A stretch of DNA of 64,000 nucleotides from a virus: the IMG/VR virus record IMGVR_UViG_3300045988_176028; one strand, given 5' to 3'. Shown one piece after another: positions 549 through 58,108 of this stretch. The notes beneath the pieces were generated by a model. It saw only the letters and a program-made list of their open reading frames with translations. It was not told the DNA's origin and made no database searches. The position numbers and the translations under genes were made by a program. Within the stretch, counting starts at the first letter, position 1. Every line of letters begins with the position of its first letter.

Positions 549-571
549 TTTGTGTGAACGATTCCACTATA
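549..571 (-). promoter_or_regulatory. conserved promoter/operator motif, copy P1
   Basis: Gene-sense TATAGTGGAATCGTTCACACAAA, 11 nt upstream of the ATG at 538. Confidence 0.6.
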
Positions 572-1010
572 TCACATCGTGAGAAAGAAGCAAAATCCCG
601 CAAAACCATAAAACACAAACGCCCCTCAATGCCGTGGAAAATACAAAAACCTCCAACAAACGAAAGGGGCAAAACGTTGAAAACCAAAGAATTCAAGGAA
701 GTAACCGTCTGCGAGGACGAAAGCGAAGCATACGAATACTGAAACCACCATTCCGACCCGAACCCATACGATTGTTGCAACCTACACAAAACAGGTGTCC
801 CGCCATTAGGTGACAGTAATAGATTTAGAAAGACAGAAGCCAACTGACAAAAAGAAAGAGTCCGGCTGGTGCTCAAAATCCGCAAAACACCTACCGGACT
901 CTTCTTAGAGGGTAATCTATTCCAAGGTTCGATACTTATATGTGGGACTAACTGTTCCAAGAGTTAGAACCGGCGAACATGGCAATCATTACCGCCATTC
1001 GTTTCCTTGT

Positions 1011-2102
1011 TCAGCTTATCTTCGTGATACCGACAAGATGATTGCCATTCCCGTTGCAAGTCTGCATCCAGTCACCGGAGTCGGGAGCATACTGGGCACC
1101 CTGAACGCTCTGTCCGTTAACCCGATAGGTGGAGCCGTTCATGGTGAACGTCTGACCCGCTTGCAGATTGTTAATCCACGCGCCACCCGTATTGTTGTGT
1201 TGCGCATACACGTGGCCGTTGCCATAGTTCAAGTCCACGATGCCGCCGCCGTCAACCGCGCCTTGGCAGTGGTCTGCGGCAGAAGTCAAATTGCAGGACA
1301 TGGAACTGTAGTAGCCGCGCGGAGTGGACTGGATTGGAGTGTAGGAACCATAGTTGGAACGGGTAGTCGCATAGTTTCCGTTCGTAGTGTCGGACGCCTG
1401 AGAATAGGACGCCGCCACTACGCTCTGCTGACGTTCCTGTCCGATACGGGACTGACGTGCGTTCATATCGTCGGACACCTTGTTAATCAGCTTGTCCAAT
1501 TCGGACACGTCCACGCTCATGGTTTTCACGTCCGTGGATTCCATCAGATACTTGGCCTTCTCCAACAGGTCAGACAGTTTATCGCGATTGTTTTCATCGT
1601 CCACGTTGCCGTTGGATGATTCCAAAATTCTCTTACCCTTATCAACCATATCGGCAAGCTTCTTCCTCATATCATTAAGCTTGTGGGAGGCGATGGCGGT
1701 ATCCACAGATTTGGCCGTCCGGTCGATGGAACGGATAAGAGAGTGAATGCGATTATTGGACTCGACCGTCTTGTCGGTCAGGGATGAAACGGTGAAGACA
1801 GTAGCCTTCTCTTTTTGCGACATGTGGATTTTAGTCGCTTCCGTTAATTGGGATTGCAATGCCTCACGGGCAATACGGGTAGCGTCATCATCGTCACGAG
1901 TGACAATGGTCTTGTTTTGAACGTTTTCCGTATCCTGTTTCAAACGTGCAGTCAGAGTGACTGTATGGTTCAATGCCGTCTCATATTCTTTCCGATTCTG
2001 CATGAACTCATTGGCGGTAGCCGTGTTGGCGGGAATAAGAACCATTGCGATAACCAGTGAGATGAACATGATGGTTCTCATGGTCTTGGTGTTGGTTTTC
2101 AA
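1011..2102 (-). CDS. secreted coiled-coil protein with Cys-containing C-terminal domain, function unknown
   Basis: 363-aa ORF. N-terminal signal-peptide-like segment (MKTNTKTMRTIMFISLVIAMVLIPANTATA), a long charged helical middle, and a Gly/Asn-rich C-terminal domain with a His...TC arrangement. Confidence 0.55.
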   Translation of the reverse strand: MKTNTKTMRTIMFISLVIAMVLIPANTATANEFMQNRKEYETALNHTVTLTARLKQDTENVQNKTIVTRDDDDATRIAREALQSQLTEATKIHMSQKEKATVFTVSSLTDKTVESNNRIHSLIRSIDRTAKSVDTAIASHKLNDMRKKLADMVDKGKRILESSNGNVDDENNRDKLSDLLEKAKYLMESTDVKTMSVDVSELDKLINKVSDDMNARQSRIGQERQQSVVAASYSQASDTTNGNYATTRSNYGSYTPIQSTPRGYYSSMSCNLTSAADHCQGAVDGGGIVDLNYGNGHVYAQHNNTGGAWINNLQAGQTFTMNGSTYRVNGQSVQGAQYAPDSGDWMQTCNGNGNHLVGITKIS

Positions 2103-2162
2103 TTTTTTGCTTTCTTTTTCTTTTTGATTTGGTTTCTTTTTGTGGAATATGTTTTTAAGGCT

Positions 2163-2417
2163 TTAACCTAGGAAAGCCATTTCGTCGGCTAGTTCGTCTT
2201 CGCCTTTTTCTCTGAGTAGGTTTGCCACACCATATCGTTGATTCCAACAACGCACTATGGTGTCCGCTTTTATGTTGGGCGCTCCCCAGACGGTTGGTAG
2301 GATGGAACATTCGTCCGGCTTGTGGCTGATGCCGTAGCATGTTCCGTTTACGGTATTGTCATAGACGAGTCGAACCGGCTTACCGCAGAATGGGCATGGG
2401 GCTAGATGGAAACTCAA
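2163..2417 (-). CDS. Lar-family restriction-alleviation-like zinc-ribbon protein
   Basis: 84-aa ORF with a TTG start 7 nt after AGGAG. N-terminal APCPFCGK...V...Y and later CWNQR match the Lar family layout (CPFCG ... WN.R). Confidence 0.55.
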   Translation of the reverse strand: MSFHLAPCPFCGKPVRLVYDNTVNGTCYGISHKPDECSILPTVWGAPNIKADTIVRCWNQRYGVANLLREKGEDELADEMAFLG

Positions 2418-2517
2418 AGAAGCTCTCCTAATATCTCTTCGATTGGGATGTCTTCTTCCACGTCGATAGTCTTATACAAGGAACGTAGAAATAAGGCAGT
2501 ATTCCAATTTAGGTTTC

Positions 2518-2541
2518 TTTCGTGTGGACACTTCTAGTATA
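2518..2541 (-). promoter_or_regulatory. conserved promoter/operator motif, copy P2
   Basis: Gene-sense TATACTAGAAGTGTCCACACGAAA, about 100 nt upstream of the Lar-like gene. Confidence 0.5.
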
Positions 2542-2696
2542 ACACGTCTTTGGTTTAGTTTTACCGCACCTAGTTCCACTCTGCCGTTGCATGTCGATTA
2601 GTCGAAATACTTCCTCCTCATCCAAATCGACCCAACGCCCGTCGAACGGACTTTGATAGAACTCGTTTTGCGGCAGTGGACGAATCTCACCATCTT

Positions 2697-3287
2697 TCAA
2701 ACGGATTCCTCCCTCTGTTTTCGACATTCACGGAAGACGCGCAGAAGAATCCGCGTAGCCGCCTGTTCCGGAGTCAAACCCTTCAAGTCCAATACCGGAA
2801 TAATGGTGGAACCAACATTCACATGCAGTCCGCCGATAATGCCGTAACAGTAGTCATTATAGGTTCTTAATTCGGCATGGACTCCACGGTACGGCATGGA
2901 AATGTTTTCCACGTCCCCGTTGCAATCCCAGTGGGACCCGCCATGCCGTTCTATCAAATCCAACAATGCGTCTTTGACCTGCGAGCCGAACGTGGAAGCC
3001 GAATATGTGATTTTAGGCGTCACATAGTTCATGCATCCGCAGTTCGGACAAGGATACGGCTGCTGTTGCCCGATTGTTCCACCGTACAGCCGGGTGATAG
3101 GAGTGGAACAGTATCCGCAATCCAGCCTGCCGTTGATAACCATTTTGATACTAACTCCTCTATTCGGTTCCATATTTTTTTTGACGGCTTCACTCGGCGG
3201 CATTCCCGCATATTCGAATACAGGAAGCCCCTCATGGTTGACGTTCACATGCAATCCGTCAGTCCTTCTTCTGTAATCTTTTTGCAC
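2697..3287 (-). CDS. hypothetical zinc-ribbon protein
   Basis: 196-aa ORF with CGYC...CPNCGC. Contains an internal duplicated GLHVNVN / GGLHVNVG segment. Overlaps the stop of the upstream gene, so operon-like. Confidence 0.45.
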   Translation of the reverse strand: MQKDYRRRTDGLHVNVNHEGLPVFEYAGMPPSEAVKKNMEPNRGVSIKMVINGRLDCGYCSTPITRLYGGTIGQQQPYPCPNCGCMNYVTPKITYSASTFGSQVKDALLDLIERHGGSHWDCNGDVENISMPYRGVHAELRTYNDYCYGIIGGLHVNVGSTIIPVLDLKGLTPEQAATRILLRVFRECRKQREESV

Positions 3288-3849
3288 GTCGTTCTTCGGG
3301 AGTGCCGAAACGCTTGTAGTAGCATTCCTTGGAGCAGATGTCGTAGGCTTTCATGCCGGAATAGTAGGGGTATTTTCGACCGCATTCGGCACATGTTCTG
3401 GTGGCCGTAGCCATCATGTTTTTGGCGAAGGCGATGCCCTCCGGAGTTCCAGTTGCGATATACTTGTCACCGCGCTTGACGTAGGTGACGCACCCGTAGT
3501 GGCGGAGCCGTTCCATGCTGGCTTTGGCTGTAGGCTGGGAGACGTAGTTCCAGCCGTATCCTTTGCGGGAGATTTCCTCAAGAATGTTGAACATGTCGTA
3601 TTGGAGGTACTTGCGTTCAGGCTTGTACTGTCCGACATGTGTTTCAACGAACTCGCTGATAGCATCCATGTCGGGGATGAACCAGTCTCCGATGGTGGAG
3701 TAGTGTTCGATTCTTCCGAAGTCTTTCCGGACTAGGGATTCGAGGATTTTCTTGGTTTGCTCCAAGAGGATTCGACTGTTGTCTTCCCGCTTGTCGCGGG
3801 ATGAAATGAATTCCAAGAGACTGTATTCGTCTGCTGTGATGTTGTTCAT
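3259..3849 (-). CDS. hypothetical protein with C-terminal CxxC zinc ribbon
   Basis: Start chosen at the internal ATG 3849 (MNNITADEY...) because GGAG and promoter motif P3 lie just upstream. The longer ORF, which starts at 3969, would begin upstream of the promoter motif. Confidence 0.5.
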   Translation of the reverse strand: MNNITADEYSLLEFISSRDKREDNSRILLEQTKKILESLVRKDFGRIEHYSTIGDWFIPDMDAISEFVETHVGQYKPERKYLQYDMFNILEEISRKGYGWNYVSQPTAKASMERLRHYGCVTYVKRGDKYIATGTPEGIAFAKNMMATATRTCAECGRKYPYYSGMKAYDICSKECYYKRFGTPEERRAKRLQKKD

Positions 3850-3871: not shown

Positions 3872-3894
3872 TTTGTGTGAACAGTTCCAGTATA
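3872..3894 (-). promoter_or_regulatory. conserved promoter/operator motif, copy P3
   Basis: Gene-sense TATACTGGAACTGTTCACACAAA, 23 nt upstream of the ATG at 3849. Confidence 0.6.
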
Positions 3895-4084: not shown

Positions 4085-5842
4085 TTACAGGGCGAGTATG
4101 GTGACACGCGGATACGGCCTTGCCTTCAACGCGCCGCGGTCGCCCGCGTTGAACCGTTTCATCATCTCCCCGTACCGGTCGGACAGCGCACCCCTCACCG
4201 GCATGTCCACGTGCTCAAGGGAGACGCAGTTGGAGAACATGGCCGGCCCCCTGTCGTCCATCTCTACGTCGGAGGGAAGCTCCAGATTGGAGATGTCCAG
4301 CCTGCGAAGCCGCTCGCAATGCATGAACATGCGATTGATGTCCTTGACCTGCGGCAGCCGCAGTTCCGACAGGTCCAGTTCGGTAATCCGATTCCCCCAC
4401 GAGGCGAACATCTCACGGGCGACCTCCGCGCCGCTCACATCCAATCCGGGCACCTTCAGGCTCGTCACGTCGGGGCCAAGTCGGAACAGACGCTCGCAGT
4501 CCTTCGCGTCCGGGGCCTTCAGGTTGACGATTTCAACGTCCCCGAAGCCCGAATTGTTGAACATCCATGCCAGACTGACGGTCTTCGACATGTCCAGATT
4601 CGTGAAGTCCACCCGGCGCAATGCCCACATGTCCTCGAAGAAGACGCTCATGTCCTCCGGTGCCTTGGAACCCGGCACGAAGCGGATTCCCTCAATCCTG
4701 TTACGGTTGCCTATGTCCGCCCATTTCGGATTGTGGGCAAGCGTGCGCGGTTCGGGGCATCCGTCGCGCCAGTCGAAGGTAAGCACGTAGGTAAGAGCAC
4801 CCGGACGATAGTTCAGCTTCCAGCCGTCCCCTTGGGCTATGAGACTGTTGTCACGATAATGGTTGACGAACCCTCCGGGAAGAGTGCTCCCCTTTGTCTT
4901 CGTGTTCTCGAAGAACATGCTCCCCGCCCCGTAGGCTTGACCGAAATCCACTCGACGGACATTGCTATTATGGGAACGGAGACTCTGCACGCTCGCTCCG
5001 CTTACTGTCGCGTCGGACATCACCGTCTTGTTCAGGAATGCCCTGTCCATCGTCGCGCCGGTCAGATTCACCTTCCGCAGGTCGATGCCTCCCATGTTGG
5101 CTCCGGTCAAATCGGCTCCGGCAAGGTTCACGCGCTCCATGTTCGTGCATTCGAAGACGGCGTTTCGTAGTATCGCATCCGACATGTCTGCCCCGTTGAA
5201 TTGGAACCAGCTTACCTTGGCACGGCTGAAGTCGGCTTCGCGCAGGTCGGCGTTCTCCAGATAGACGGGACGCCCCGCTTTCAGCGTCCCAAGGAACCTC
5301 ATGCGCCGCATGTCGGCGTCGCGGAAAACGGTGTGGCCTAGAGGGGTGCCTGAGTCGATTAGCGAACCCCTCAAATCAGCCCCCGACATGTCTACGTCGC
5401 AAAGGTCAACGCCGGAGAAGTCGAGGTATCGCAGGTCAAGCCCACTCAGGTCACGGCCGCGAAGAACGTTCCCCAAGCGGTAAAGCTCGGTTTCCACGAC
5501 GACGCCCGGACTCGGCCTGCCGACGCGCATGTATCGCGTCAGCCTGATGTCTTCCGGCAGGCCGCGTCCATCGTCCCGGATGTCGGGTGCGTACAGGCGG
5601 ATACCAAGCCCCAGCTTCGTCCCATCGGGGATGCGGCCAATGACCTTGTCGGCGTTCTTTCCGTCGTTCGCAAAAAGTTCCACCAGACGTTGTGCCGTCC
5701 GTCGCACGTTTTCCACGATGCCGGGGGTTTCCGCCCATTCGACCAGCGAAGGCAGTGTTTGGTCGGTGATTTCCCTGTCGGAGAGGTCTCCGTATTCTCT
5801 CACGGAGACTTCCATCGTCTCCGTTCCGTCTGTGATTCTCAT
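4085..5842 (-). CDS. pentapeptide-repeat / BspA-type (DUF285-like) leucine-rich-repeat fusion protein
   Basis: Start at ATG 5842 (MRITDG...), after AAAGGAGAG. The central part has long runs of A(D/N)LxG-type pentapeptide repeats (GADLRGS, NADLREADFSRAKV, GADLTGANMGGIDLRKVNLTGATM). The C-terminal part has repeats of the MF..C..L..LD(L/I)S.L type. Confidence 0.7.
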   Translation of the reverse strand: MRITDGTETMEVSVREYGDLSDREITDQTLPSLVEWAETPGIVENVRRTAQRLVELFANDGKNADKVIGRIPDGTKLGLGIRLYAPDIRDDGRGLPEDIRLTRYMRVGRPSPGVVVETELYRLGNVLRGRDLSGLDLRYLDFSGVDLCDVDMSGADLRGSLIDSGTPLGHTVFRDADMRRMRFLGTLKAGRPVYLENADLREADFSRAKVSWFQFNGADMSDAILRNAVFECTNMERVNLAGADLTGANMGGIDLRKVNLTGATMDRAFLNKTVMSDATVSGASVQSLRSHNSNVRRVDFGQAYGAGSMFFENTKTKGSTLPGGFVNHYRDNSLIAQGDGWKLNYRPGALTYVLTFDWRDGCPEPRTLAHNPKWADIGNRNRIEGIRFVPGSKAPEDMSVFFEDMWALRRVDFTNLDMSKTVSLAWMFNNSGFGDVEIVNLKAPDAKDCERLFRLGPDVTSLKVPGLDVSGAEVAREMFASWGNRITELDLSELRLPQVKDINRMFMHCERLRRLDISNLELPSDVEMDDRGPAMFSNCVSLEHVDMPVRGALSDRYGEMMKRFNAGDRGALKARPYPRVTILAL

Positions 5843-5916: not shown

Positions 5917-5939
5917 TTTGTGTAGACAATCCCAGTATA
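5917..5939 (-). promoter_or_regulatory. conserved promoter/operator motif, copy P4
   Basis: Gene-sense TATACTGGGATTGTCTACACAAA, 75 nt upstream of the ATG at 5842. Confidence 0.55.
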
Positions 5940-10642: not shown

Positions 10643-10665
10643 TTTGTGTGAACGATTTCAGTATA
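10643..10665 (-). promoter_or_regulatory. conserved promoter/operator motif, copy P5
   Basis: Gene-sense TATACTGAAATCGTTCACACAAA. Confidence 0.6.
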
Positions 10666-12067: not shown

Positions 12068-12090
12068 TTTGTGTGGACGATTCCAGCATA
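12068..12090 (-). promoter_or_regulatory. conserved promoter/operator motif, copy P6
   Basis: Gene-sense TATGCTGGAATCGTCCACACAAA, 36 nt upstream of the ATG at 12032. Divergent from cas9. Confidence 0.55.
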
Positions 12091-12141: not shown

Positions 12142-12168
12142 TATATATTGGACATGTCCACAAATAAA
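12142..12168 (+). promoter_or_regulatory. palindromic variant of the motif, plus-strand copy upstream of tracrRNA candidate and cas9
   Basis: TATATATTGGACATGTCCACAAATAAAA. It shares TTGGACATGTCCACA-ATAAAA with the copy at 58084-58108. The core TGGACATGTCCA is a perfect palindrome. Confidence 0.5.
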
Positions 12169-12242
12169 AAACCAAGCGCTGTTCGAAAAACGGAAACGAC
12201 ACGCCGGGGTTGCCAGAAGAACACTGTGTGTTATAGTGGGAA

Positions 12243-12331
12243 CCACGGCATATAGTTTAAACAAGTCCGGTGACAGACCGGAATTGACCGTAGAGCGGCG
12301 ATAGGACGCAAGTCCCAATCGCCGCTTTTTT
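12243..12331 (+). ncRNA. tracrRNA candidate A (anti-repeat + nexus-like hairpin + intrinsic terminator)
   Basis: CCACGGCATATAGTTTAAAC pairs over 17 positions (15 Watson-Crick, 2 G:U, 1 bulge) with the 5' end of the repeat read from the minus strand. It is followed by AAGTCCGG-TGACAGA-CCGGAATT, resembling the AAGGC..GUCCG nexus. The hairpin GAGCGGCGAT...ATCGCCGC plus TTTTTT ends at 12331, 30 nt before cas9. Confidence 0.5.
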
Positions 12332-12360
12332 AATGCAGTGCGGAAAGAGAACAACAGACC

Positions 12361-15300
12361 TTGACCGCAAAAACCAATATCCGCTATCGCGTGGGAGCTG
12401 ACGTAGGACTCAACAGTCTAGGATTCTCGGCAATCCAACTCGACGCCAACGGCAACCCAATCACACTACTCAAAACCCTCAGCTACATTCACGACGGCGG
12501 AGTAGACCCAACCCAAAACAAGTCCGGCACCACCCGCAAGGCCATGGCCGGAATCGCCCGACGTACCCGCAACATGCGCAAACGCCGCCGCCACCGTCTC
12601 AACCAACTCGACCGTCAGCTCTACCAACTGGGATATCCGGTGGACGAAGTGCCGGAAAGCGAACACGGACTCTACGAATACTGGAACGTCCGTTCCGCAT
12701 TGGCGACCGCCTACGTCCCCGACAAGGACAAGCGTGACCGGATGATGGTCATGGCTATCCGACATATCGCACGCCATCGCGGTTGGCGCAACTCCTATAG
12801 TCGGGTCGAAACCCTGTTCGAGGACGTGGAGCCGTCCGACCAGTACAAGGATTTGAAACAGCGAGTGGAGACCCGTCTTGGAATGAAACTAGACGAGGAT
12901 ATGACCCCGGCGCAACTCGTCGCATTGACGCTTTCAGACCGTGATGAGAACTTCATGAGGGTTCGTACCAGCACAAAATACGGTGAGGGTGTTCTGCCAA
13001 GCCGTCTCATGCAGTCCGACAATGCGCGTGAACTCCGACGCATCTTCACCGTCCAGCAAGTGCCCGAGGACGTTTGGAAGCCCATCCTGCGTACCGTGTT
13101 CCACTGCGCATCCCCCAAGGGTTCCGCAGAGAAGCATGTCGGAACAGACCCGCTCGACCAGACCCAGAAGAGAGCGTTGAAGGCCAGCATCGCCTTCCAG
13201 AAGTACCGTATCCTCAACGTCATCACCAACCTGCGTATCCGACGCAAAGGCGAAGCATCCCGACCGTTGACCGTCAACGAGAAACAGGATGTATACGAAC
13301 TGCTCACCACCGCCAAGGAAGACTTGGAATGGTTGGACGTGTGCGCCGTGCTTGACATCGAACGCAACGAACTCAAAGGCGTCGGCACCCTCACCCATGA
13401 CGGGGAGGAAAGAATCGGTAACAAGCCACCCGTCTTGGACACTGTCATCCGACTCCACGGCATCAAAAACACCAAGCTCCGCAAGATGATGGACGCATGG
13501 TGGAACACGGCCACCGAGACCGAACAGGCCGCGATGATTCGACTCCTGTCCAACACGGTTGACTTGGACAAGGTGCGCGACCTCATCGAATACGCCTCCC
13601 CCATCGAATTCATCGACGGGTTGGACGAAGACCTGCTCACCCCGTTGGACTCCATCAGTCTTCCAGTCGGACGTGCCGCCTACTCCGAAAAAACCCTCAC
13701 CCGACTGTCCAAACGCATGTTGGAAACGGAAGATGATTTGCATTATGCGATTCGCCACGAGTTCAACGTGCCCGCAGACTGGAAGCTTCCGGTTCCACCT
13801 GTTCAGGAGCCGACCGGCAATCCTGCCGTTGACCGAGTGTTGAAAGCGTTCAACCGTTTCCTCAGCCAGTGCGAACAACAGTATGGCATTCCGGAAAGCA
13901 TCGCCATCGAAACCACGAAGGAATCGTTCTCGTCCATCGCGTTCGGACGCACGCTCGACTATGAGCGCCGTCAACGTCGGGACAAGGACAATCAGACGCG
14001 TGCCGCAATCCGTGAGGATATGAGGAAGCAACTGTCCAACGGCGGAAGCTTCAAAGTCCACGACTACGACATTCGCCGTTGGGAAATCGTCCAATCGCAG
14101 AACAACACATGCCTGTACTGTGGTGCGACCAGTCCACGATTCAGTTTCGATAAGTCGGAACTCGACCATATCGTTCCCCGTCGTGGTGTCGGTTCGGACA
14201 GCAAACGCACCAACATGGCCGCAGTATGCCCCGAATGCAATGCCAACAAGTCGAACATTCCGTTCGCCGTCTGGGTGCATTCCGACTATGCGAAAGCGCA
14301 CGGCATCACCATGAATGATGTCATCGCACGAGTGAACCAGCTGATGTTCCCACCATCCATGAACCGCAAGCAGGTCAGTCAGGTGAAAAAGGCCATCATC
14401 AGCCGACTCAAGCAGACCGAACAGGACGAGCCGTTGGACAATCGTTCCATCGAATCCGTGGGCTGGATGGCCGACGAACTCCACCGCCGACTCGATGGAC
14501 GATACGCCAACAAAACGGTGAAAGTGTCCACGTTCCCCGGCTCCATCACCTATGAGGCGCGACGCGCTTCCGGCATCGACGGGCAAATCCACTTCATCGG
14601 CGCACAGTGGAAGACCCGACTCGACCGCCGACACCATGCGGTTGACGCTTCGGTCATCGCCATGATGAACCAGAGTGTCGCTCTCCGTCTTGCCGAACGC
14701 CACTATCTACGCGAATCCCAACGCCTGTGCGGGACCCCGTTCGGACAGGCGGACTGGAAGCAGTATCCGAATGAGAACACTCCCGGCTACGACCAATACC
14801 AGCAATGGAGCGGACAGATGAAGAATCTGCTCCACCTGTTGAACAAGGGTTTGGACGAGGACACCATTCCGGTCGTTCGGAGCCGCCGCCTCCGCTTGGG
14901 CAACAGCACGGCGCATGATGCGACGGTGAAACCGTTGCAATACGTGCGACTGGGAGACGCCATGCCGACCAGTCTCATCGACCATGCGCTCACCCCGCAA
15001 GTGTGGAAGGCATTGACCGGATTGTCGGATTATGACCCTCAGAATGGTCTGCCCGCTAATCCGAAACGTGTCATCACAGCCTTGGGTGAAGTATGCCATG
15101 CGAAGGATGAAATCGGTTTCCTTCCGGGCAACAATGCCCAATTGTTCGTCAACGGTGGAGCCGCCGATATTGGCGGAACCATCCATCATGCCCGTATCTA
15201 CCGTTGCGAACAGGTGTTGAAGAACGGGAAACGCAAGACGTTCTATGGCATGGTGCGCGTGTTCCAATGCGATTTGATGAAACGCAGGAAGAACACCGAC

Positions 15301-15687
15301 CTGTTCCGAACCCCGTTACATCCCGCCGACGTGTCCATCCGGTATGCGGACGGCAAGGTCAGGGACGCCATCCGACAGGGACACGCAACCTGCATCGCAC
15401 GACTCACCGTCAACGATGAAATCAAGTTGACACCTGAGATGATGAGGGACATGTGTCCTGAATATGCGAACATGTTCCACACAGATTCCGGCGTCGAACG
15501 ACGATTCATCGTGGCCGGCTTCCCCTCCCCTATCCAGTTCAGACTAGTTCCCTCCGTCATTGCAGAAGAAGGATTAAGTAAGATGGTTGAACAAGGTTTG
15601 GAGGTTCCCCCCAAGGTCGAGAAGATGTTCAAACTGCACACCTTCGTTCCAGTGGTCAATAAGATTGGACATGTTTTAGAGCAGTAA
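12361..15687 (+). CDS. cas9: Cas9, type II-C (actinobacterial-size, 1108 aa)
   Basis: RuvC-I motif YRVGADVGLNSLGFSAI. Arg-rich bridge helix GIARRTRNMRKRRRHR. HNH motif ELDHIVPR...CPECNANKSN. RuvC-III motif RRHHAVDASVIAM. Followed directly by cas1 and cas2, with no csn2 or cas4. Confidence 0.95.
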   Translation: MTAKTNIRYRVGADVGLNSLGFSAIQLDANGNPITLLKTLSYIHDGGVDPTQNKSGTTRKAMAGIARRTRNMRKRRRHRLNQLDRQLYQLGYPVDEVPESEHGLYEYWNVRSALATAYVPDKDKRDRMMVMAIRHIARHRGWRNSYSRVETLFEDVEPSDQYKDLKQRVETRLGMKLDEDMTPAQLVALTLSDRDENFMRVRTSTKYGEGVLPSRLMQSDNARELRRIFTVQQVPEDVWKPILRTVFHCASPKGSAEKHVGTDPLDQTQKRALKASIAFQKYRILNVITNLRIRRKGEASRPLTVNEKQDVYELLTTAKEDLEWLDVCAVLDIERNELKGVGTLTHDGEERIGNKPPVLDTVIRLHGIKNTKLRKMMDAWWNTATETEQAAMIRLLSNTVDLDKVRDLIEYASPIEFIDGLDEDLLTPLDSISLPVGRAAYSEKTLTRLSKRMLETEDDLHYAIRHEFNVPADWKLPVPPVQEPTGNPAVDRVLKAFNRFLSQCEQQYGIPESIAIETTKESFSSIAFGRTLDYERRQRRDKDNQTRAAIREDMRKQLSNGGSFKVHDYDIRRWEIVQSQNNTCLYCGATSPRFSFDKSELDHIVPRRGVGSDSKRTNMAAVCPECNANKSNIPFAVWVHSDYAKAHGITMNDVIARVNQLMFPPSMNRKQVSQVKKAIISRLKQTEQDEPLDNRSIESVGWMADELHRRLDGRYANKTVKVSTFPGSITYEARRASGIDGQIHFIGAQWKTRLDRRHHAVDASVIAMMNQSVALRLAERHYLRESQRLCGTPFGQADWKQYPNENTPGYDQYQQWSGQMKNLLHLLNKGLDEDTIPVVRSRRLRLGNSTAHDATVKPLQYVRLGDAMPTSLIDHALTPQVWKALTGLSDYDPQNGLPANPKRVITALGEVCHAKDEIGFLPGNNAQLFVNGGAADIGGTIHHARIYRCEQVLKNGKRKTFYGMVRVFQCDLMKRRKNTDLFRTPLHPADVSIRYADGKVRDAIRQGHATCIARLTVNDEIKLTPEMMRDMCPEYANMFHTDSGVERRFIVAGFPSPIQFRLVPSVIAEEGLSKMVEQGLEVPPKVEKMFKLHTFVPVVNKIGHVLEQ

Positions 15688-17716: not shown

Positions 17717-17847
17717 AAAAATTCAAACAAAATACCTAACAAAGAATAAGCCGGTGTTTCGCCACTCCCACCGGCGAGGAGCTGTTCACACAAAGACGCG
17801 GAGTAGGAGAAGGGTGGAGAGAAAAACACCCGTAGACTCCGCTTTTT
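17681..17847 (+). ncRNA. degenerate terminal repeat plus structured tail (alternative tracrRNA candidate B, or array trailer)
   Basis: The last 20 nt of the repeat are retained exactly (AATACGACATATATTCAAAC). They are followed by an A-rich linker, the hairpin GCCGGTG...CACCGGC, a GCTGTTCACACAAAG motif fragment, and the terminator hairpin GCGGAGT...ACTCCGC plus TTTTT (17798-17847). Confidence 0.3.
17798..17847 (+). terminator. intrinsic terminator downstream of the CRISPR array
   Basis: GCGGAGT-(loop with inner stem GGGTG/CACCC)-ACTCCGC followed by TTTTTG. Confidence 0.6.
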
Positions 17848-21620: not shown

Positions 21621-21643
21621 TTTGTGTGAACACTGCCAGTATA
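21621..21643 (-). promoter_or_regulatory. conserved promoter/operator motif, copy P7 (points toward ssrA and the tRNA cluster)
   Basis: Gene-sense TATACTGGCAGTGTTCACACAAA. There is no ORF of 60 aa or more downstream before ssrA. Confidence 0.55.
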
Positions 21644-28291: not shown

Positions 28292-28315
28292 TTATGTGTG
28301 GACTTATCCAGTATA
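28292..28315 (-). promoter_or_regulatory. conserved promoter/operator motif, copy P8
   Basis: Gene-sense TATACTGGATAAGTCCACACATAA. Confidence 0.55.
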
Positions 28316-29203: not shown

Positions 29204-29227
29204 TATGATGTGAATGTTTCCAGTATA
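29204..29227 (-). promoter_or_regulatory. conserved promoter/operator motif, copy P9
   Basis: Gene-sense TATACTGGAAACATTCACATCATA. Confidence 0.5.
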
Positions 29228-29862: not shown

Positions 29863-29885
29863 ATTGTGTGAACAACCCCAGTATA
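29863..29885 (-). promoter_or_regulatory. conserved promoter/operator motif, copy P10
   Basis: Gene-sense TATACTGGGGTTGTTCACACAAT. Confidence 0.55.
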
Positions 29886-32086: not shown

Positions 32087-32111
32087 TTTATGTGTGGACA
32101 TCCCCACTATA
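32087..32111 (-). promoter_or_regulatory. conserved promoter/operator motif, copy P11
   Basis: Gene-sense TATAGTGGGGATGTCCACACATAAA. Confidence 0.5.
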
Positions 32112-34536: not shown

Positions 34537-34561
34537 TTTTTGTGCGAACAACTCCAGTATA
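34537..34561 (-). promoter_or_regulatory. conserved promoter/operator motif, copy P12
   Basis: Gene-sense TATACTGGAGTTGTTCGCACAAAAA. Confidence 0.55.
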
Positions 34562-35292: not shown

Positions 35293-35315
35293 TTTGTGTG
35301 AACAATTCCAGTATA
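35293..35315 (-). promoter_or_regulatory. conserved promoter/operator motif, copy P13
   Basis: Gene-sense TATACTGGAATTGTTCACACAAA (consensus copy). Confidence 0.6.
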
Positions 35316-35742: not shown

Positions 35743-35765
35743 TTTGTGTGAACAATTCCAGTATA
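35743..35765 (-). promoter_or_regulatory. conserved promoter/operator motif, copy P14
   Basis: Gene-sense TATACTGGAATTGTTCACACAAA. Confidence 0.6.
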
Positions 35766-36454: not shown

Positions 36455-36477
36455 TTTGTGTGAACAATTCCAGTATA
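36455..36477 (-). promoter_or_regulatory. conserved promoter/operator motif, copy P15
   Basis: Gene-sense TATACTGGAATTGTTCACACAAA. Confidence 0.6.
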
Positions 36478-37304: not shown

Positions 37305-37327
37305 CTTGTGTGAACAATTCCAGTATA
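37305..37327 (-). promoter_or_regulatory. conserved promoter/operator motif, copy P16
   Basis: Gene-sense TATACTGGAATTGTTCACACAAG. Confidence 0.6.
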
Positions 37328-53269: not shown

Positions 53270-53418
53270 GACGATTCTCCGAACGGACGGTGGCTGCCGG
53301 ACTCATGCACGCCCAGACAGTGCTGGCACATGGTCTCCCCGTCGTATGGGGTTTTCCTGACGCCGCAGCGGACGCAACGGCTGGTTCCCTTGTCGGTCGG
53401 ATGCAGTGTGAATCTCAT
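53233..53418 (-). CDS. 61-aa zinc-ribbon protein
   Basis: CVRCG...CQHC pattern. Overlaps the annotated start of the downstream gene. Confidence 0.3.
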   Translation of the reverse strand: MRFTLHPTDKGTSRCVRCGVRKTPYDGETMCQHCLGVHESGSHRPFGESSWFGGASWFVKP

Positions 53419-53690
53419 TTTCGGCTCCCCATCTCCAATGCGCTGATATCGGCTTTTAGAAGGTCGATGATGTCCTTACGGGTATGGTTGGTCTCGATTT
53501 TGCCGGAAACCCCGTGAAGGGCCTTTAAAGCGACGATACGGTCATGTTCGGCAAGCCACTCATCGTAATCCTTTTCGTCTGCGGGAAGACCGGTCTGAAC
53601 GTAGGCACCATCGCAATACCGGCCACGAACGGTCTCATCATCAAGAGGCCGAACCGGCGAACCAGTCGGAAGCGCGATAGGCAAAAGCAT
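53415..53690 (-). CDS. hypothetical protein
   Basis: 91-aa ORF. Degenerate motif copy P18 lies 22 nt upstream. Confidence 0.4.
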   Translation of the reverse strand: MLLPIALPTGSPVRPLDDETVRGRYCDGAYVQTGLPADEKDYDEWLAEHDRIVALKALHGVSGKIETNHTRKDIIDLLKADISALEMGSRK

Positions 53691-53711
53691 GTTTTCTCTT
53701 TTCCGCTAGCC

Positions 53712-53732
53712 AATGTGGACTAATCCAGTCTA
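53712..53732 (-). promoter_or_regulatory. degenerate copy of the motif (P18)
   Basis: Gene-sense TAGACTGGATTAGTCCACATT. Closest to copy P8. Confidence 0.4.
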
Positions 53733-53999: not shown

Positions 54000-54100
54000 T
54001 TTTCCTATATTTTTTGCTTTTTCAAATTTTTTAAAATTTGAGCCCATATATATTATGTATTAGTTATGTATGTTATGTATATTTATGGGGATGCCTGAAA
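54000..54100. other. AT-rich stretch with short direct repeats (candidate DNA-unwinding element of oriV 2)
   Basis: TTTTCCTATATTTTTTGCTTTTTCAAATTTTTTAAAATTT..., then TTATGTAT repeated three times. Confidence 0.45.
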
Positions 54101-54134
54101 GCCCTTGTGGCAGTAAGGCTGAGAGACTGTTCTT

Positions 54135-54258
54135 ATATTCAAATTGTGAACTTTTCATATTCAAATTGTGAACTTTCATATCTAAATCATAAACTTTTAT
54201 ATTCAAATCATAAGTCAAAAATAGGCAAAAAATGTTTTTCCATACTCAAATTGTGAAC
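54135..54258 (+). repeat. iteron set of oriV 2 (5 copies, 21-22-bp phasing)
   Basis: ATATTCAAATTGTGAAC at 54135 and 54157, ATATCTAAATCATAAAC at 54178, ATATTCAAATCATAAGT at 54199, ATACTCAAATTGTGAAC at 54242. Lies 140 nt upstream of the repA paralog. Confidence 0.7.
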
Positions 54259-54395
54259 AATAGGGTGCTGTAGACAGTGTTGTTGAAAACCTCATAAAAT
54301 ACAGCCCACAGCCTACAATAAAGAAAAAGAGAACCCCTCTGCAATAGGCAGAACAGGGGGGTTCGCTAAAAACCAGAGTAAAAGGAAGTGGTTTC

Positions 54396-55304
54396 ATGTC
54401 CAATGATACACCAGCCGTCAACAAAAAAGACATCAGCTATTCCCCTAGCCTCATGTCGCAGATTGCCATGTTCCCTCTCAAGAACCCCGGTGACGTCCGA
54501 TTCGTGGAAAGGACGAACGGATGCGTGTCCGTGGCGGTAATGCAATCGATGTGGGGTTGGACATATGGGAAGATACCCCGCCTATTTCTGATTTATACTC
54601 GTTCTTTGGTGCAAACAGGCTCCGACAAAGTGGATATGGAGCACCATATCGTCAAGATAGATAAGTCTTTCCACTTATTCTGTGAACAGGTTGGATTGGC
54701 GGCTGGAACCAGTGTCAAAGATGTCGAACAGTCTCTTCTTTGCTTATCCGGAACGACTTTCACGATTTCCCTAATCGGCAAAAGTCCTAATGGGAGACAT
54801 TTCATAGAGGGGCGTAACCTACGTCTTGTGAGTCAATTCCATCTGCGTTTCAATAACTCCAAGTTCGACTATCCGGGTTTTAAAGATGATGGAGACCCGT
54901 CTTCTTATATCCAGTTCTCTGAGGAGATGTGGAGTATGTTCACTGACAATCCGGTGCCGTTGAACAAGAGAATCACCTTCGAGCTTGGCAAGTCGGCTAG
55001 AGCATTGGATATCTACCAGTGGCTTGCCTATAGAGCTTATGGGTTGAAGAAGCCTTTGTTTGTTCCATGGCAGTCTCTCAAGGCTCAATTCGACATATCG
55101 GATACGCCCATGTATTCATTTAAACAAAAGTTCAGTAGAGCCTTAAACAAGGTATGTAAGGCTTGGCCTGAAATCAAAGTCATATGCGGGAAAAACGGGC
55201 TAACCTTATACCCCTGCAAGAGTTCTCTGGACTCCGAGGAACCAGTCCAAAAGACTCCCCAACCGGTGAAGCCAAGGCAGGTGGAACTAAACCCGTTTGC
55301 CTAA
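54396..55304 (+). CDS. repA: RepA-family plasmid replication initiator (paralog 2)
   Basis: 302 aa. YGKIPRLFLIY and RALDIYQWLAYRAYGLKKPLFVPWQSLKAQFDISDTPMYSFKQKFSRALNKV match the RepA C-terminal-domain pattern. Confidence 0.75.
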   Translation: MSNDTPAVNKKDISYSPSLMSQIAMFPLKNPGDVRFVERTNGCVSVAVMQSMWGWTYGKIPRLFLIYTRSLVQTGSDKVDMEHHIVKIDKSFHLFCEQVGLAAGTSVKDVEQSLLCLSGTTFTISLIGKSPNGRHFIEGRNLRLVSQFHLRFNNSKFDYPGFKDDGDPSSYIQFSEEMWSMFTDNPVPLNKRITFELGKSARALDIYQWLAYRAYGLKKPLFVPWQSLKAQFDISDTPMYSFKQKFSRALNKVCKAWPEIKVICGKNGLTLYPCKSSLDSEEPVQKTPQPVKPRQVELNPFA

Positions 55305-55400
55305 TCCAGCCTTCTCAATGAGTAGAAACGTATTCTCCTGTTTTCTATCGTCGGGCTTACACGTGGCAAACCGTTAATTAGTTAAGAAAAGAGCGGTCAT

Positions 55401-56291
55401 ATGATTGACAATAGCAACGAAGGCTACCTTCTGAAAGTTGCCGACAATCTGAAACTTATACCCATCGCTGGCGTCTTCCCTATAGAGAATACGGGAGCTG
55501 AGTTCTTTGAGAAAAGGAACGGAACGGTCACGGTCAATATTGCCCCGGAAAGAGGAAAGTGGGCTTATGGGAAGATTCCTAGGCTTATTCTTCTCTACTT
55601 GAGTTCTTTAATCATGGAAAGGTCTGAGAAAGTCGATTTCGACAAAAAGACTATAGTCTTTAACGAATCATTCCGTTCTTTTTGCAAGCACTCTGGCCTA
55701 ACATATTACGGCGGTTTGGCCGAAAAAGTAGACGAGATGCTGAATCGTATACTGAATACGACTATCCAGTTTAGGGGCCGGTTCGACGCGAAGGAAGAAC
55801 GAATACTGGCCGTGGGAAACTATCGGATTTTCGATTACGGAGAATTCCACTTTCACGACGTGGACACTTCTCGGAAAACATATATCAGATTATCTGACTT
55901 GCTGTGGCGGATTCTTACGGAGAATTGCGTCCCCTTGAACAGAGGTATCGCCGCCCAATTAGGACGTTCCCCCAGAGCTTTGGATATCTACCAGTGGCTT
56001 GCCTATCGAACATATGCCCTGAAAAAGCCCGTCGTCGTTTCTTGGGAGAATCTTCGGAGTCAGTTCGATTCAGCGGATACGCCGATGTACTCTTTCAGAC
56101 GGAGGTTTTGCCGGTCGTTGGAGAAGGTGTCGGACGCGTGGCCGGAGCTGGCGACTTCCGTTGGGGAAAAAGGATTGACGCTCTATCCCAGCAGAAGCTC
56201 CCTCACTTCGGGAAAAGGAAAGGAAAAGGCTTTCGGACAGGGGGCCGTCTCTTCCGCAAAGGAGTCCGCCATGACGGAAAACCCGTTCTAA
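55401..56291 (+). CDS. repA: RepA-family plasmid replication initiator (paralog 3, tandem to paralog 2)
   Basis: 296 aa. YGKIPRLILLY and RALDIYQWLAYRTYALKKPVVVSWENLRSQFDSADTPMYSFRRRFCRSLEKV are clearly paralogous to 54396-55304. Confidence 0.75.
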   Translation: MIDNSNEGYLLKVADNLKLIPIAGVFPIENTGAEFFEKRNGTVTVNIAPERGKWAYGKIPRLILLYLSSLIMERSEKVDFDKKTIVFNESFRSFCKHSGLTYYGGLAEKVDEMLNRILNTTIQFRGRFDAKEERILAVGNYRIFDYGEFHFHDVDTSRKTYIRLSDLLWRILTENCVPLNRGIAAQLGRSPRALDIYQWLAYRTYALKKPVVVSWENLRSQFDSADTPMYSFRRRFCRSLEKVSDAWPELATSVGEKGLTLYPSRSSLTSGKGKEKAFGQGAVSSAKESAMTENPF

Positions 56292-56292
56292 C

Positions 56293-56334
56293 AAAAAGCT
56301 TGGGGCACCGGTTTTTCGATGCCCCAAGCTTTTT
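56293..56334. terminator. bidirectional intrinsic terminator
   Basis: AAAAAGCTTGGGGCA-(12 nt)-TGCCCCAAGCTTTTT, between convergent genes. Confidence 0.7.
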
Positions 56335-56357
56335 GTTGGGAAACGGAGGGGAAAGAG

Positions 56358-57272
56358 CTATGCGACAACGTCGTTGTACATGGCGAAGTTTTGCGCGTCG
56401 GCCATATCCCATGCTGTGAATTCGACTTCCTTCAAGGACTTGTCGTATCCGCAGTTTCGGAGCGCGTAGCGTGCCGCCGCGTCGATGCCTTTGCCGTAGT
56501 GCCCGTCGGCTTCCGCCTTGTCACGGAGTTCGGCAATGCCATGCAAGGCCGCGCTGATAGCCATTCCGGCCATTTTCGTCACGTCATTGTCCGCGCTGAT
56601 GGAGAACGGTTGCCAATCGCATGCGCCGCTTTTCTCGAACACCCAGAATTGCATAGCCACAGGCTTGCGTCTGGTGCGTTGGAATGCTTCCGCCGGACAG
56701 TTCGCAACCGCCTGACGGTAGAACGACGCCTGAATGTGATAACCGTATTCGATGACATGCTTGTGGAAGTCCGTGGCGCTGGCACTGCTCGCGGTCTTCA
56801 AATCCACGAGATAGTCAACGCCGGTCGGAATCAAATCCGGCTTGGCTTTCAATCCCAAGCCGGTATCGTCATCCGTCCACACGATGCACTGTTCGCATGT
56901 GCCTTTGCCGATAAGGTCGTACATGTCGGGACGGGAGTCGATGATGTTCTGCTTCATGCGTTTGAGCAACTGCATATCCTTGTAGGATACGACGATGTTG
57001 TCCATCGCCTCTTGCGCTTCACGCCATGCTTTGTTGGCTTTGTTTTGGAAGGTCTGCCCCTCGTCAAGGCATACGACCTCGCTCGTGTTCAACAGGTAGG
57101 CGTGGAATGCGGTTCCGAACTTCATCGCGTCAGTCGGCGTATGGTCGCCCAACAGTCGGTCGTAAGCCCATTCCTTCGGATTTTTCAGGAACGCTTTCAA
57201 CTGGCTCTGGTCGAGCGCGTCCATGGCGAAGTATTCCTCGTCGGTCGCGTCGATGATTTTCGCTTGGCTCAT
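56358..57272 (-). CDS. PD-(D/E)XK-family recombination exonuclease (RecE/Cas4-like fold)
   Basis: 304 aa. GTAFHAYLL ... KAKPDLIP.GVDYLVDLKTA ... YGYHIQASFYRQA matches the G..H / D...(D/E).K / Y..Q..Y layout of phage/plasmid PD-(D/E)XK nucleases. Confidence 0.6.
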   Translation of the reverse strand: MSQAKIIDATDEEYFAMDALDQSQLKAFLKNPKEWAYDRLLGDHTPTDAMKFGTAFHAYLLNTSEVVCLDEGQTFQNKANKAWREAQEAMDNIVVSYKDMQLLKRMKQNIIDSRPDMYDLIGKGTCEQCIVWTDDDTGLGLKAKPDLIPTGVDYLVDLKTASSASATDFHKHVIEYGYHIQASFYRQAVANCPAEAFQRTRRKPVAMQFWVFEKSGACDWQPFSISADNDVTKMAGMAISAALHGIAELRDKAEADGHYGKGIDAAARYALRNCGYDKSLKEVEFTAWDMADAQNFAMYNDVVA

Positions 57273-57278
57273 GGAGGA

Positions 57279-57941
57279 TTACTCCTCTTCGTCTCCGGTG
57301 ATGGAAGTGTCTTCGCCTCGCGCTTCGGCGTCGGCCTTGACCGCGTCTTCGTCGGGCAGATGCACTTCGACCTTGTTGGTTTCGGCGTTCTGGAAGATAA
57401 CAGGCTCCTCATAGTCGATGGGTTCGCCGGTCTGCGGGTCGAACTCCGGCTGGAGCTTCATGTTGTCAACGTAGTTGTAGGGGTTTCCATCGGCTTCGGC
57501 CTGTGCCCGGTCGATTTCCTCCCACGCGTCCTGCCATGCGGCGTACTCCTCCGCATAACCCGGATATGGTTCGATGTGGCGAATCTCCCAGTCGAGGAAT
57601 TGTTTATCGGTGATGGGCTGGGATGGTTCGAAACTGTTGGTCAGAGAGTCCGGAATCGGAACCGTGTATGATGCTCGGTTCCTTTCCTCCTCCTCGTCGG
57701 TCATCGGTTCGTCGAATACTACTTCGGAGTGGCCGTAATCGGTTGCCATTTTGGTCTTCTTTCTGATTTGCGCGGACATTTCCAAATATTGGACGGTTTC
57801 CAACCACATGCCGTGTGGCATTTCAAGTGGGTTTTTCTCCCACCGTTTATATGTGCTTGTTGACACGTCCAGTACTTCGGCTGTTTCAGCCTGTGTTTTT
57901 CCCGCTTGTATTCGAAGGTTGCGTAATGAGATGTTTCCCAT
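57279..57941 (-). CDS. XRE-family HTH protein with acidic C-terminal half
   Basis: 220 aa. N-terminal LRNLRIQAGKTQAETAEVLDVSTSTYKRWEKN is a classic Cro/CI-type HTH. Confidence 0.65.
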   Translation of the reverse strand: MGNISLRNLRIQAGKTQAETAEVLDVSTSTYKRWEKNPLEMPHGMWLETVQYLEMSAQIRKKTKMATDYGHSEVVFDEPMTDEEEERNRASYTVPIPDSLTNSFEPSQPITDKQFLDWEIRHIEPYPGYAEEYAAWQDAWEEIDRAQAEADGNPYNYVDNMKLQPEFDPQTGEPIDYEEPVIFQNAETNKVEVHLPDEDAVKADAEARGEDTSITGDEEE

Positions 57942-57964
57942 TTTTTAGACAACTCCTTTCCTAC

Positions 57965-57983
57965 AAGTTTCAACCCAACTATA
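57965..57983 (-). promoter_or_regulatory. degenerate copy of the motif (P19)
   Basis: Gene-sense TATAGTTGGGTTGAAACTT, 24 nt upstream of the HTH gene. Weak match. Confidence 0.3.
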
Positions 57984-58083
57984 GCATTGGTTCACTTTTG
58001 AGCCAAATCGTATGATTGAGTATGCTGATAATCGTTGAAATTCAAGGGGACACGCTTGATTTCACAATAGTTCAAATATGACC

Positions 58084-58108
58084 TATACTTGGACATGTCC
58101 ACATAAAA
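58084..58108 (+). promoter_or_regulatory. palindromic variant of the motif, plus-strand copy upstream of the SSB-like gene
   Basis: TATACTTGGACATGTCCACATAAAA. Shares a 15-nt identical core with 12142-12168. Confidence 0.5.

Follow-up and report, generated by a model that had tools for sequence, protein, structure and literature searches.

The megaplasmid pMP7017 of Bifidobacterium breve carries a 34-bp promoter motif, AWAYATGYTATACTGAATATGTCCACATAAAAWA, which has been described as pMP7017 specific (Dineen et al. 2024, Microb Biotechnol 17:e14405; PMC10832533). It was spotted by RNA sequencing (RNA-seq) at six highly expressed genes and then at 13 more, giving 19 copies predicted to drive 56 genes, or ~24% of the coding capacity; it is present in pMP7017 homologues, is absent from bifidobacterial chromosomes, and has been proposed as the putative transcription factor site of a plasmid-specific regulon, the published transcription starts being approximate (PMC10832533). 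The regulon listed for pMP7017 includes the type I-E cas genes, a WhiB-family gene, and ssb, and the transfer-messenger RNA (tmRNA) gene behind a motif promoter is "highly transcribed," with most of the motif-driven cas genes falling below threshold (PMC10832533). Because that tmRNA is highly transcribed in established cells, motif promoters are not silent at steady state, and the mixed expression implies that they are neither uniformly silent nor uniformly strong. The stretch analyzed here, called the window, comprises 64,000 nucleotides (nt) of IMG/VR record IMGVR_UViG_3300045988_176028, in which a 23-bp sequence is repeated upstream of genes. By sequence comparison, this repeated sequence is a further lineage of the motif already published for the pMP7017 family, and the window is a piece of a conjugative megaplasmid of ~220 to 240 kb that belongs to that family, within a Bifidobacterium adolescentis lineage common in metagenomes.

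The published motif has a TATACT -10 hexamer that continues as G-N5-GTCCACATAAAA, and the window consensus, TATACTGGAATTGTTCACACAAA, follows the same course. The two consensus sequences (window, GGAATTGTTCACACAAA; pMP7017, GAATATGTCCACATAAAA) stand in the same register, with TATACTG and GTYCACAYAAA common to both and 12 of the 17 positions after the -10 identical. Scanning of pMP7017 with a matrix derived from the window recovered ~25 copies. On both plasmids the motif is multicopy, lies 5' of start codons, is absent from chromosomes, and covers cargo, defense, and CRISPR-Cas genes as well as the tmRNA/tRNA region. The differences lie in the host lineage (B. adolescentis for the window, B. longum or B. 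breve for pMP7017), in the CRISPR system placed under the motif (type II, with Cas9 and a trans-activating CRISPR RNA [tracrRNA], versus type I-E), and in the reach of conservation, which ends at about +12 in the window but extends to the ribosome-binding site (RBS) on pMP7017.

The pattern TATACTGGAATTGTTCACACAAA, with up to 3 mismatches allowed, had 12 matches in the window, all on the minus strand, and none in 100 dinucleotide-preserving shuffles. A position-weight matrix seeded from these 12 matches and then iterated over the window gave 17 strong ungapped copies scoring 30 to 45 bits, the runner-up position in the window scoring 11 bits. The minus strand carries 16 of the strong copies, whose -10 hexamers begin at positions 571, 2541, 3894, 5939, 10665, 12090, 21643, 28315, 29227, 29885, 32111, 34561, 35315, 35765, 36477, and 37327, and one is on the plus strand (12144). 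The copy at 58084(+) is invisible to an ungapped scan because it has one extra nucleotide between the -10 and the block that follows it (TATACT-t-GGACATGTCCACATAAAA); this copy and a weak one at 53732(-) bring the total to ~19. All of the strong copies are intergenic, the intergenic share of the window being 14.6% (P, ~6e-15), and every copy lies in gene sense, facing the next gene, with the -10 at 39 to 63 nt from the start codon in 13 of the 17. The hexamer TATACT itself is found in 13 of the 17. The repeated 23-bp sequence is real, highly nonrandom, and biologically meaningful. The original prediction, made from the letters alone, had pointed to conserved copies upstream of genes, including four at 35293 to 37305 that are identical or one base apart; both statements were borne out, as was, within the window, the expectation that the motif would be rarer inside genes than upstream of them, since none of the strong copies is genic. 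Three further copies had been described as degenerate. That at 53732(-) is a genuine weak copy, and those at 51885 and 57965 lack the downstream block. The copies in the window and their genes are as follows.

549..571, minus strand, motif copy TATAGTGGAATCGTTCACACAAA, promoter of the DUF3846 gene at 119-532
2519..2541, minus strand, motif copy TATACTAGAAGTGTCCACACGAA, 124 nt upstream of the open reading frame (ORF) at 2163-2417
3872..3894, minus strand, motif copy, promoter of the ORF at 3259-3849
5917..5939, minus strand, motif copy, promoter of the pentapeptide-repeat protein gene at 4085-5842
10643..10665, minus strand, motif copy, promoter of the ORF at 10157-10615
12068..12090, minus strand, motif copy with TATGCT as its -10, promoter of the Cys-rich ORF at 11433-12032, back-to-back with the copy at 12144
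12144..12166, plus strand, motif copy TATATTGGACATGTCCACAAATA, whose transcript enters the tracrRNA-like RNA 5' of cas9
21621..21643, minus strand, motif copy upstream of the tmRNA at 20806-21177 and a nine-tRNA cluster, with no RBS downstream
28293..28315, minus strand, motif copy heading a run of small genes that includes secE (27327-27578) and secG (26416-26646)
29205..29227, minus strand, motif copy GGAAACATTCACATCAT, the weakest of the strong set, promoter of the ORF at 28627-29184
29863..29885, minus strand, motif copy, promoter of the ORF at 29663-29842
32089..32111, minus strand, motif copy TATAGTGGGGATGTCCACACATA, promoter of the ORF at 31677-32060
34539..34561, minus strand, motif copy with a consensus -35 (TTGACA), promoter of the ORF at 34171-34515
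35293..35315, minus strand, exact consensus copy with TTGACT as its -35, promoter of the ORF at 34679-35254
35743..35765, minus strand, exact consensus copy, promoter of the ORF at 35395-35706
36455..36477, minus strand, exact consensus copy, promoter of the ORF at 35833-36414
37305..37327, minus strand, one-mismatch copy, promoter of the ORF at 36747-37274, a paralogue of that at 34679-35254
53710..53732, minus strand, weak copy TAGACTGGATTAGTCCACATTGG, promoter of the ORF at 53415-53690
58084..58108, plus strand, copy with a 1-nt insertion (TATACTtGGACATGTCCACATAAAA), promoter of the DUF2815/Enc34 gene at 58222-59343, which encodes a protein like single-stranded-DNA-binding protein (SSB)

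The gene labels assigned earlier hold for Cas9, SecG, SecE, the tmRNA, the tRNAs, the Enc34/DUF2815 SSB-like protein, and an XRE-type helix-turn-helix (HTH) protein. The label Lar-like was left unconfirmed, since the window proteins gave no Pfam match for it and a tblastn search with the Lar protein of pMP7017 found no match. The paralogous products of 34679-35254 and 36747-37274 both begin with MLSLE, and an identical motif copy precedes each gene, suggesting that units made up of a promoter and its gene were duplicated locally.

The exact consensus matched nothing among the species-representative genomes, so a degenerate pattern was needed; this was scanned over 185,579 species, with one representative genome each. 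Multiple copies were found only in B. callitrichidarum TRI 5, on contigs with plasmid-backbone homologues, and the other 16 matches were singletons in unrelated taxa, not above chance. The plasmid-like assembly of B. callitrichidarum has 20 to 21 good motif copies. IMG/VR yielded at least 75 stretches with a match, spread over more than 30 contigs of 40 to 205 kb and containing 229 sites (191 unique) that sort into a window type, a pMP7017 type, and a few intermediates. Three lineages have retained the downstream block although their orthologous proteins are only 30 to 60% identical and the sequence around the block has not been retained, which points to long-term selection.

Assignment of the window to the pMP7017 family follows from synteny, protein matches, and the identity of its RepA to a B. 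adolescentis protein. pMP7017 is matched by 25 window proteins at 30 to 88% identity with conserved gene order; a block running FtsK, DUF2815, HTH, PD-(D/E)XK, and RepA is syntenic, and secE/secG and the tmRNA/tRNA cluster are also present. The RepA of the window is identical to a RefSeq protein named for B. adolescentis and is carried by at least 1,000 contigs of up to 239 kb, while the exact HTH protein is found on metagenome contigs of 218 to 231 kb and is indexed in 3,525 blocks of the metagenome collection. Other genes of the window include three RepA_C genes, FtsK-like backbone genes, a tnpB gene, and a gene for a 2,599-amino-acid (aa) surface protein with FctA domains. A phage origin was considered and set aside, as the window had no megablast match among 50,697 phage records. 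IMG/VR lists dozens of these 40- to 205-kb bifidobacterial megaplasmid contigs as viral genomes. The possibility that the motif marks a recombination or mosaic boundary was also rejected: breakpoints between the window and its relatives are intergenic, and 8 of 42 fall at motifs against an expected 12.6%, which is not significant.

The information profile of the motif has two conserved blocks with three variable bases between them. The upstream block is TRTGn-TATACT-G(G/A)A, with an unconserved -35, although a few copies have perfect TTGACA or TTGACT boxes at 17 bp. TG at -15/-14 occurs in 9 of 17 copies in the window, in 17 of 25 on pMP7017, and in 135 of 191 in IMG/VR, and position 5 of the -10 is a C almost without exception. 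Judged by its sequence, this half is a standard Gram-positive extended -10 ("-16 region") promoter for the housekeeping sigma factor. The downstream block, GT(T/C)CACA(C/T)AAA, is 11 to 12 nt long and asymmetric. Its spacing from the -10, at the 191 unique sites with a recognizable -10, is 6 nt in 187 and 7 nt in 4, and its first base is G in 178 of these IMG/VR sites, A in 13, and a pyrimidine in none. Since this base is always a purine and lies 6 nt after the -10, its position is that predicted for +1. Start codons follow the block at anything from 27 to 85 nt; this floating distance, the fixed spacing from the -10, and the copy without an RBS at the tmRNA/tRNA operon tie the block to the initiation of transcription rather than to translation. 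The block also appears to be a separable add-on, because the backbone promoters at 51885 and 57965 retain the -10 and GGA or GGG and have lost it. The weakly constrained spacer bases are lineage specific, reading GGAATT in one lineage and GAATAT in the other.

The original prediction had seen an inverted half-site, GGAA-N3-TTC, in the region downstream of the -10. That feature did not survive comparison: the profile lacks symmetry, with central CC/TC bases no less conserved than those on either flank and with a weak left arm for any dyad, and the half-site is kept neither on pMP7017 (GAATATGTCC) nor in B. callitrichidarum (GTAAnnGTCC). The 12-bp palindrome TGGACATGTCCA is indeed present in both plus-strand copies (12144 and 58084), as had been described, but it is lost in the orthologous DUF2815 promoters of the relatives L114 and L115, which have TGGAATCGTCCA and TAAGACTGTCCA in its place. 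A dyad-symmetric operator of the KorA/KorB, CI/Cro, or LexA type is not what these sites present, only a weak TGnA-N4-TnCA repeat being common to the lineages. Two candidate dyads were tried and rejected. In the inner one, TGGA-N4-TCCA, the lineages have only TGnA and TnCA in common, the third pair does not match in either of the two main lineages, and the palindrome is not conserved. The outer one pairs TRTGT (-17 to -13) with ACAYA (+5 to +9) and shows an apparent compensation of A-T to G-C between pMP7017 and the window, which is a single "event"; its upstream arm is the standard Gram-positive TRTG of the extended -10 and is missing in B. callitrichidarum. A single-stranded DNA promoter of the Frpo type was likewise rejected, as local self-complementarity amounts to a 3- to 4-bp stem inside the motif and no extended inverted repeat flanks the copies. 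Other likenesses considered were those to a LexA/Cheo box, to a CRP-like TGTGA-N6-TCACA site, and to an MmeI-type restriction-modification site, together with a likeness of TTGTTCACAC to the 1390 region of 16S rRNA and the WhiA motif GACAC within GGCGTGTC. What stands of the predicted element-wide regulon is a plasmid-family-specific promoter set that combines a -10 with a start-site block; the half-site and the dedicated sigma factor once proposed to explain it are not supported. A joint switch of the cargo on entry into a new host, which was also suggested, would have to work through promoters that are not silent at steady state.

The reading that we favor, with a probability of about 0.4, is that a regulator encoded by the plasmid uses the block as its operator at the start site. 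The near-consensus extended -10 would be served by the housekeeping sigma factor of the host, and because it is near consensus and no -35 is conserved, the promoter should fire without an activator. The block would be read at the DNA level by a sequence-specific protein, encoded by the plasmid and sitting on the start site, that throttles or coordinates the ~19 promoters in the window and ~25 on pMP7017. It would act on the tmRNA/tRNA operon and the genes for CRISPR-Cas RNAs, along with cargo and establishment-type genes. A trans-acting reader is favored because the 11-mer is held across three diverged lineages and is unused by chromosomes. Over 1.12 Mb, ~6 loci have a block but no -10, where ~2 would be expected; such blocks fit a role as additional operators or as roadblocks, or they could instead be antisense seeds that target the leader from RNA of the opposite strand.

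Such an arrangement would be akin to the asymmetric, orientation-dependent operators bound by phage P1 C1 or by mycobacteriophage L5 gp71 or to the -10-overlapping KorA operators of RK2. L5 gp71 stoperators and P1 C1 operators are asymmetric sites of 13 to 17 bp that occur by the tens, are bound by a known repressor, and keep no fixed distance from a -10. Like them, the sites described here are many, element wide, and asymmetric, lie in short intergenic spaces in one orientation (gene sense), and are in some cases promoterless within operons; unlike them, the block in the window and on pMP7017 has an invariant spacing from the -10, and several motif promoters show high activity once cells carry the plasmid stably. 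In the regulons of RK2 KorA/KorB and R388 ArdK/StbA/KorA, one plasmid repressor acts on many promoters through operators that overlap the -10 or +1. Those operators are palindromes bound by dimers, number ~5 to 12 per plasmid, and are associated with overshoot-type expression after transfer. By analogy, one plasmid-encoded repressor may act here on many promoters via sites that overlap the -10 or +1; the block, in contrast, is asymmetric and has ~19 to 27 copies, and repression or zygotic induction would apply to it by analogy only.

The best candidate for the regulator in the window, put forward tentatively, is the XRE-type protein.

57279..57941, minus strand, gene for an XRE-type HTH protein (HTH_3) of 220 aa, family specific, divergent from the 58084 promoter, candidate regulator

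The gene is confined to these megaplasmids, is found once per plasmid, and is located between motif promoters. The spacer between it and the DUF2815 gene (57942-58221, 280 bp) contains five GT(T/C)CA boxes on the same strand, where ~0.5 would be expected, and in the relative L114 the promoter of the HTH gene is itself a motif copy. The AlphaFold model of the protein (pLDDT, 66) has a predicted N-terminal XRE domain with a standard repressor fold like those of SinR, Aca1, ClgR, and the C-proteins; compared with the PDB, only this domain had matches, none of them at an E value of ≤0.001, and the C-terminal domain had no match. Covariation of the recognition helix with the variant of the block was considered and rejected, there being too few independent lineages and both variants coexisting in one plasmid. 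One of the spacer boxes overlaps the promoter region of the HTH gene, and the sequence GACACGC(C/T) is found in the same spacer in most of the lineages examined.

Several observations weigh against a start-site operator read by this protein. In B. callitrichidarum the syntenic slot between PD-(D/E)XK and DUF2815, which is the place that was inspected, holds no HTH gene, yet both divergent promoters there carry the motif. The block is asymmetric and has no conserved dyad, whereas XRE-type repressors usually bind palindromes. Motif promoters are found among the most highly expressed genes of pMP7017, and its tmRNA is high at steady state, so any repression would have to be partial. Part of the identity among copies reflects concerted evolution, because the weakly constrained spacer bases are also alike within a lineage. 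Finally, two of the three orphan blocks on pMP7017 are sense-oriented units without a -10 that consist of the block, a standard 5' untranslated region (UTR), an RBS, and an ATG, and these look more like a module that acts at the RNA level.

The orphan block of the window, which bears on that question, lies at the end of the CRISPR locus.

17784..17794, plus strand, orphan block GTTCACACAAA with no -10, between two convergent terminator hairpins at the trailer of the CRISPR array and the 3' end of the tRNA operon

If the block acts in RNA, it would be a shared 5' leader, the first 11 nt of every regulon transcript, and might serve as a tag for an RNA-binding protein of the plasmid or host, as a determinant of 5'-end stability, or as the target of a plasmid antisense seed. 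This is a serious rival to the operator, if somewhat less probable. The block starts at the predicted +1, always with a purine and at a fixed spacing, and would thus form the 5' terminus of the RNA; it is A/C-rich and, in the predicted UTRs, single-stranded and unstructured; and conservation on pMP7017 spans the whole 28- to 36-nt UTR up to the RBS. The units of block, UTR, RBS, and ATG without a -10 inside operons point the same way, and one of them has been copied into the coding sequence of the pMP7017 HTH gene. A translation element as such is disfavored by the copy at the tmRNA/tRNA operon, which has no RBS, and by the distance from block to RBS, which is not fixed (27 to 85 nt), and the UTRs share no conserved RNA structure. 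A conserved 5' UTR hairpin was in fact sought and rejected, GGGTT...AACCC stems being found only in some UTRs of the window and of B. callitrichidarum and those of pMP7017 being unstructured. For the antisense form of this explanation, in which C/A-rich mRNA sites would pair with the G/U-rich seed of a small RNA as they do with GcvB, each main lineage offers one site where the complement of the block adjoins a terminator hairpin on the transcribed strand. In the window this is the minus strand at 17784 to 17794, at the 3' end of the tRNA operon, where UUUGUGUGAAC is followed by the anti-Shine-Dalgarno-like AGCUCCUC, a hairpin, and a U-tract; on pMP7017 it is 147846 to 147856, where a hairpin and U8 come after UUUAUGUGGAC, this orphan being an inverted copy located 75 nt 5' of a motif promoter. 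In GcvB-type regulons, a G/U-rich small-RNA seed pairs with C/A-rich elements in 5' UTRs. The likeness consists in a C/A-rich, single-stranded element of 11 nt common to many 5' UTRs and in one G/U-rich complement beside a terminator hairpin per lineage, and the difference in that the block is fixed at the extreme 5' end and tied to a promoter and that the small RNA here is putative. However, 6 of 17 window copies have a C at +3 that would give a C-A mismatch with the putative seed, the sites could also be taken for T-rich tails of terminators or for second operators in the DNA, the orphan of the window type is known only in near-identical relatives, and the RNA-seq study of pMP7017 reported no small RNA at the antisense sites (PMC10832533). 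That the +1 to +11 block is a 5' RNA tag on ~20 to 25 transcripts, read by a plasmid antisense seed formed by UUUGUGUGAAC plus AGCUCCUC in the window and by UUUAUGUGGAC on pMP7017, is a long shot; were it true, one small RNA would exert feedback control over a quarter of the megaplasmid, including the CRISPR-Cas RNAs.

Explanations that dispense with a reader of the block, or that replace the host machinery, have less to recommend them. The motif might be a strong portable promoter and initial-transcribed-sequence cassette for host RNA polymerase, with no dedicated factor, which would join the extended -10 and a G-rich discriminator to a purine start and to an initial transcript whose A/C richness eases promoter escape, and which would have been spread and kept uniform within each plasmid by duplication and gene conversion. 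The near-consensus TRTGnTATACT promoters, the presence of motif genes among the most highly expressed of pMP7017, the lineage-specific consensus bases at weakly constrained positions, the four adjacent identical copies beside paralogous genes, and the clear gene conversion patch in the pMP7017 HTH gene are all as this would have it. We nevertheless regard it as unlikely: the block is >90% identical across lineages whose proteins are at 30 to 60%, and such agreement between lineages is beyond what gene conversion inside one plasmid can produce; the block is not in use on bifidobacterial chromosomes, with only singleton matches elsewhere; promoter escape in general needs no specific 11-mer; and the near-invariant C at the fifth position of the -10 is not required by sigma-A alone. 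A dedicated machinery, with the 23-bp unit serving as the promoter of a plasmid sigma factor, of a sigma-remodeling (e.g., WhiB-like) protein, or of a plasmid RNA polymerase, would account for a conservation of ~23 bp that spans the start site, as in promoters of single-subunit polymerases (compare the -17 to +6 promoters of T7-like enzymes), and could draw on the WhiB-family gene inside the pMP7017 regulon and on the noncanonical GGCGTGTC conserved at -36 to -29 in B. callitrichidarum. Against it, the upstream part is a textbook housekeeping TRTGn-TATACT extended -10 with several perfect TTGACA/TTGACT boxes at 17 bp, as expected of a host-type promoter; the annotation of the complete pMP7017, which is where polymerase genes were looked for, includes neither a sigma factor nor an RNA polymerase; and a WhiB homologue is not detectable in the window. 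A dedicated sigma factor or polymerase specificity, one of the explanations offered by the original prediction, is the least probable of those considered and very improbable indeed.

Under the favored operator as under its rivals, about a quarter of the genes of the megaplasmid, its supply of tmRNA and tRNAs, and its CRISPR-Cas RNAs depend on one type of promoter, and the carriers are common in Bifidobacterium, a key genus of the gut. The identity of the reader of the block would explain how the cargo of a 200-kb plasmid is coordinated, perhaps also during establishment after transfer, and the reader, once identified, would provide a ready-made, plasmid-specific expression switch for bifidobacterial genetics.

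The copy at 12144(+) places the motif over the cas9/tracrRNA region, as had been claimed, but its link to cas9 itself was overstated, since a second promoter, a structured RNA, and a terminator intervene. The features of this locus are as follows.

12210..12340, plus strand, sigma-70-like promoter TTGCCA-16-TATAGT with TG (10 of 12 promoter matches) and tracrRNA-like RNA (fold z = -6.7)
12361..15687, plus strand, cas9, 1,108 aa, followed by cas1 (15778-16668) and the CRISPR array
17052-17716, CRISPR array with repeat AGTTTGAGCAAAAGGTAATACGACATATATTCAAAC, 11 repeats of 36 nt and spacers of 28 nt

The motif copy lies 217 nt upstream of the cas9 start. Because the tracrRNA-like RNA, which has a very stable fold, ends in a long hairpin and a U6 terminator (12306-12340) just before that start (12361), expression of cas9 from 12144 would need read-through. 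From its sequence, 12210-12340 looks like a tracrRNA gene with two promoters, of which the motif promoter would give the long form, an arrangement of long and short forms like that of the S. pyogenes tracrRNA. In the CRISPR array, the last repeats are degenerate and each repeat ends in a -10-like TATATT; a 15-nt sequence resembling an anti-repeat lies at 17034-17048, immediately before the first repeat. Beyond the array, the module at 17740-17850 consists of two convergent terminator hairpins flanking GAGGAGCT-GTTCACACAAA and recurs at the trailer end of various CRISPR arrays in at least nine related contigs, in one of which (L112) the right-hand hairpin has compensatory changes.

The patch in the HTH coding sequence of pMP7017 (107051-107085; L003 7051-7085) is ~35 nt long and comprises the block, UTR, and RBS ahead of an in-frame ATG (Met69). 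In the B. longum orthologue (L038 20175-20210), the block is missing and AAGGAG-N7-ATG is kept. The comparison points to gene conversion as the origin of the patch, and the internal start at Met69 could perhaps yield an isoform that lacks the HTH. Another promoterless block, inside an operon at 60340-60400 of pMP7017 (L002 10340-10400), is preceded by the tandem heptads ATCCACA-ATCCACA, and this arrangement is conserved in pMP7017-type contigs, including five from IMG/VR. In nine stretches of B. callitrichidarum, each motif copy has GGCGTGTC at -36 to -29, and the copies with this sequence at the -35 position are without the TG extension. The exact 8-mer also occurs in intergenic positions of the window, at 12205(-), 18348(-), and 21694(+).

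Elsewhere in the window, the stretch at 54000-56300 has a GC content of 43%, compared with 53% overall, and two RepA_C-type genes lie next to each other there (54396-55304 and 55401-56291). At the position of this pair, six related stretches have one or two such genes or an IS605 insertion. A YafQ-family toxin gene with a small antitoxin-like gene upstream is found at 37394-37943, just downstream of the giant FctA adhesin gene (38158-45957), and is homologous to the YafQ system of pMP7017.

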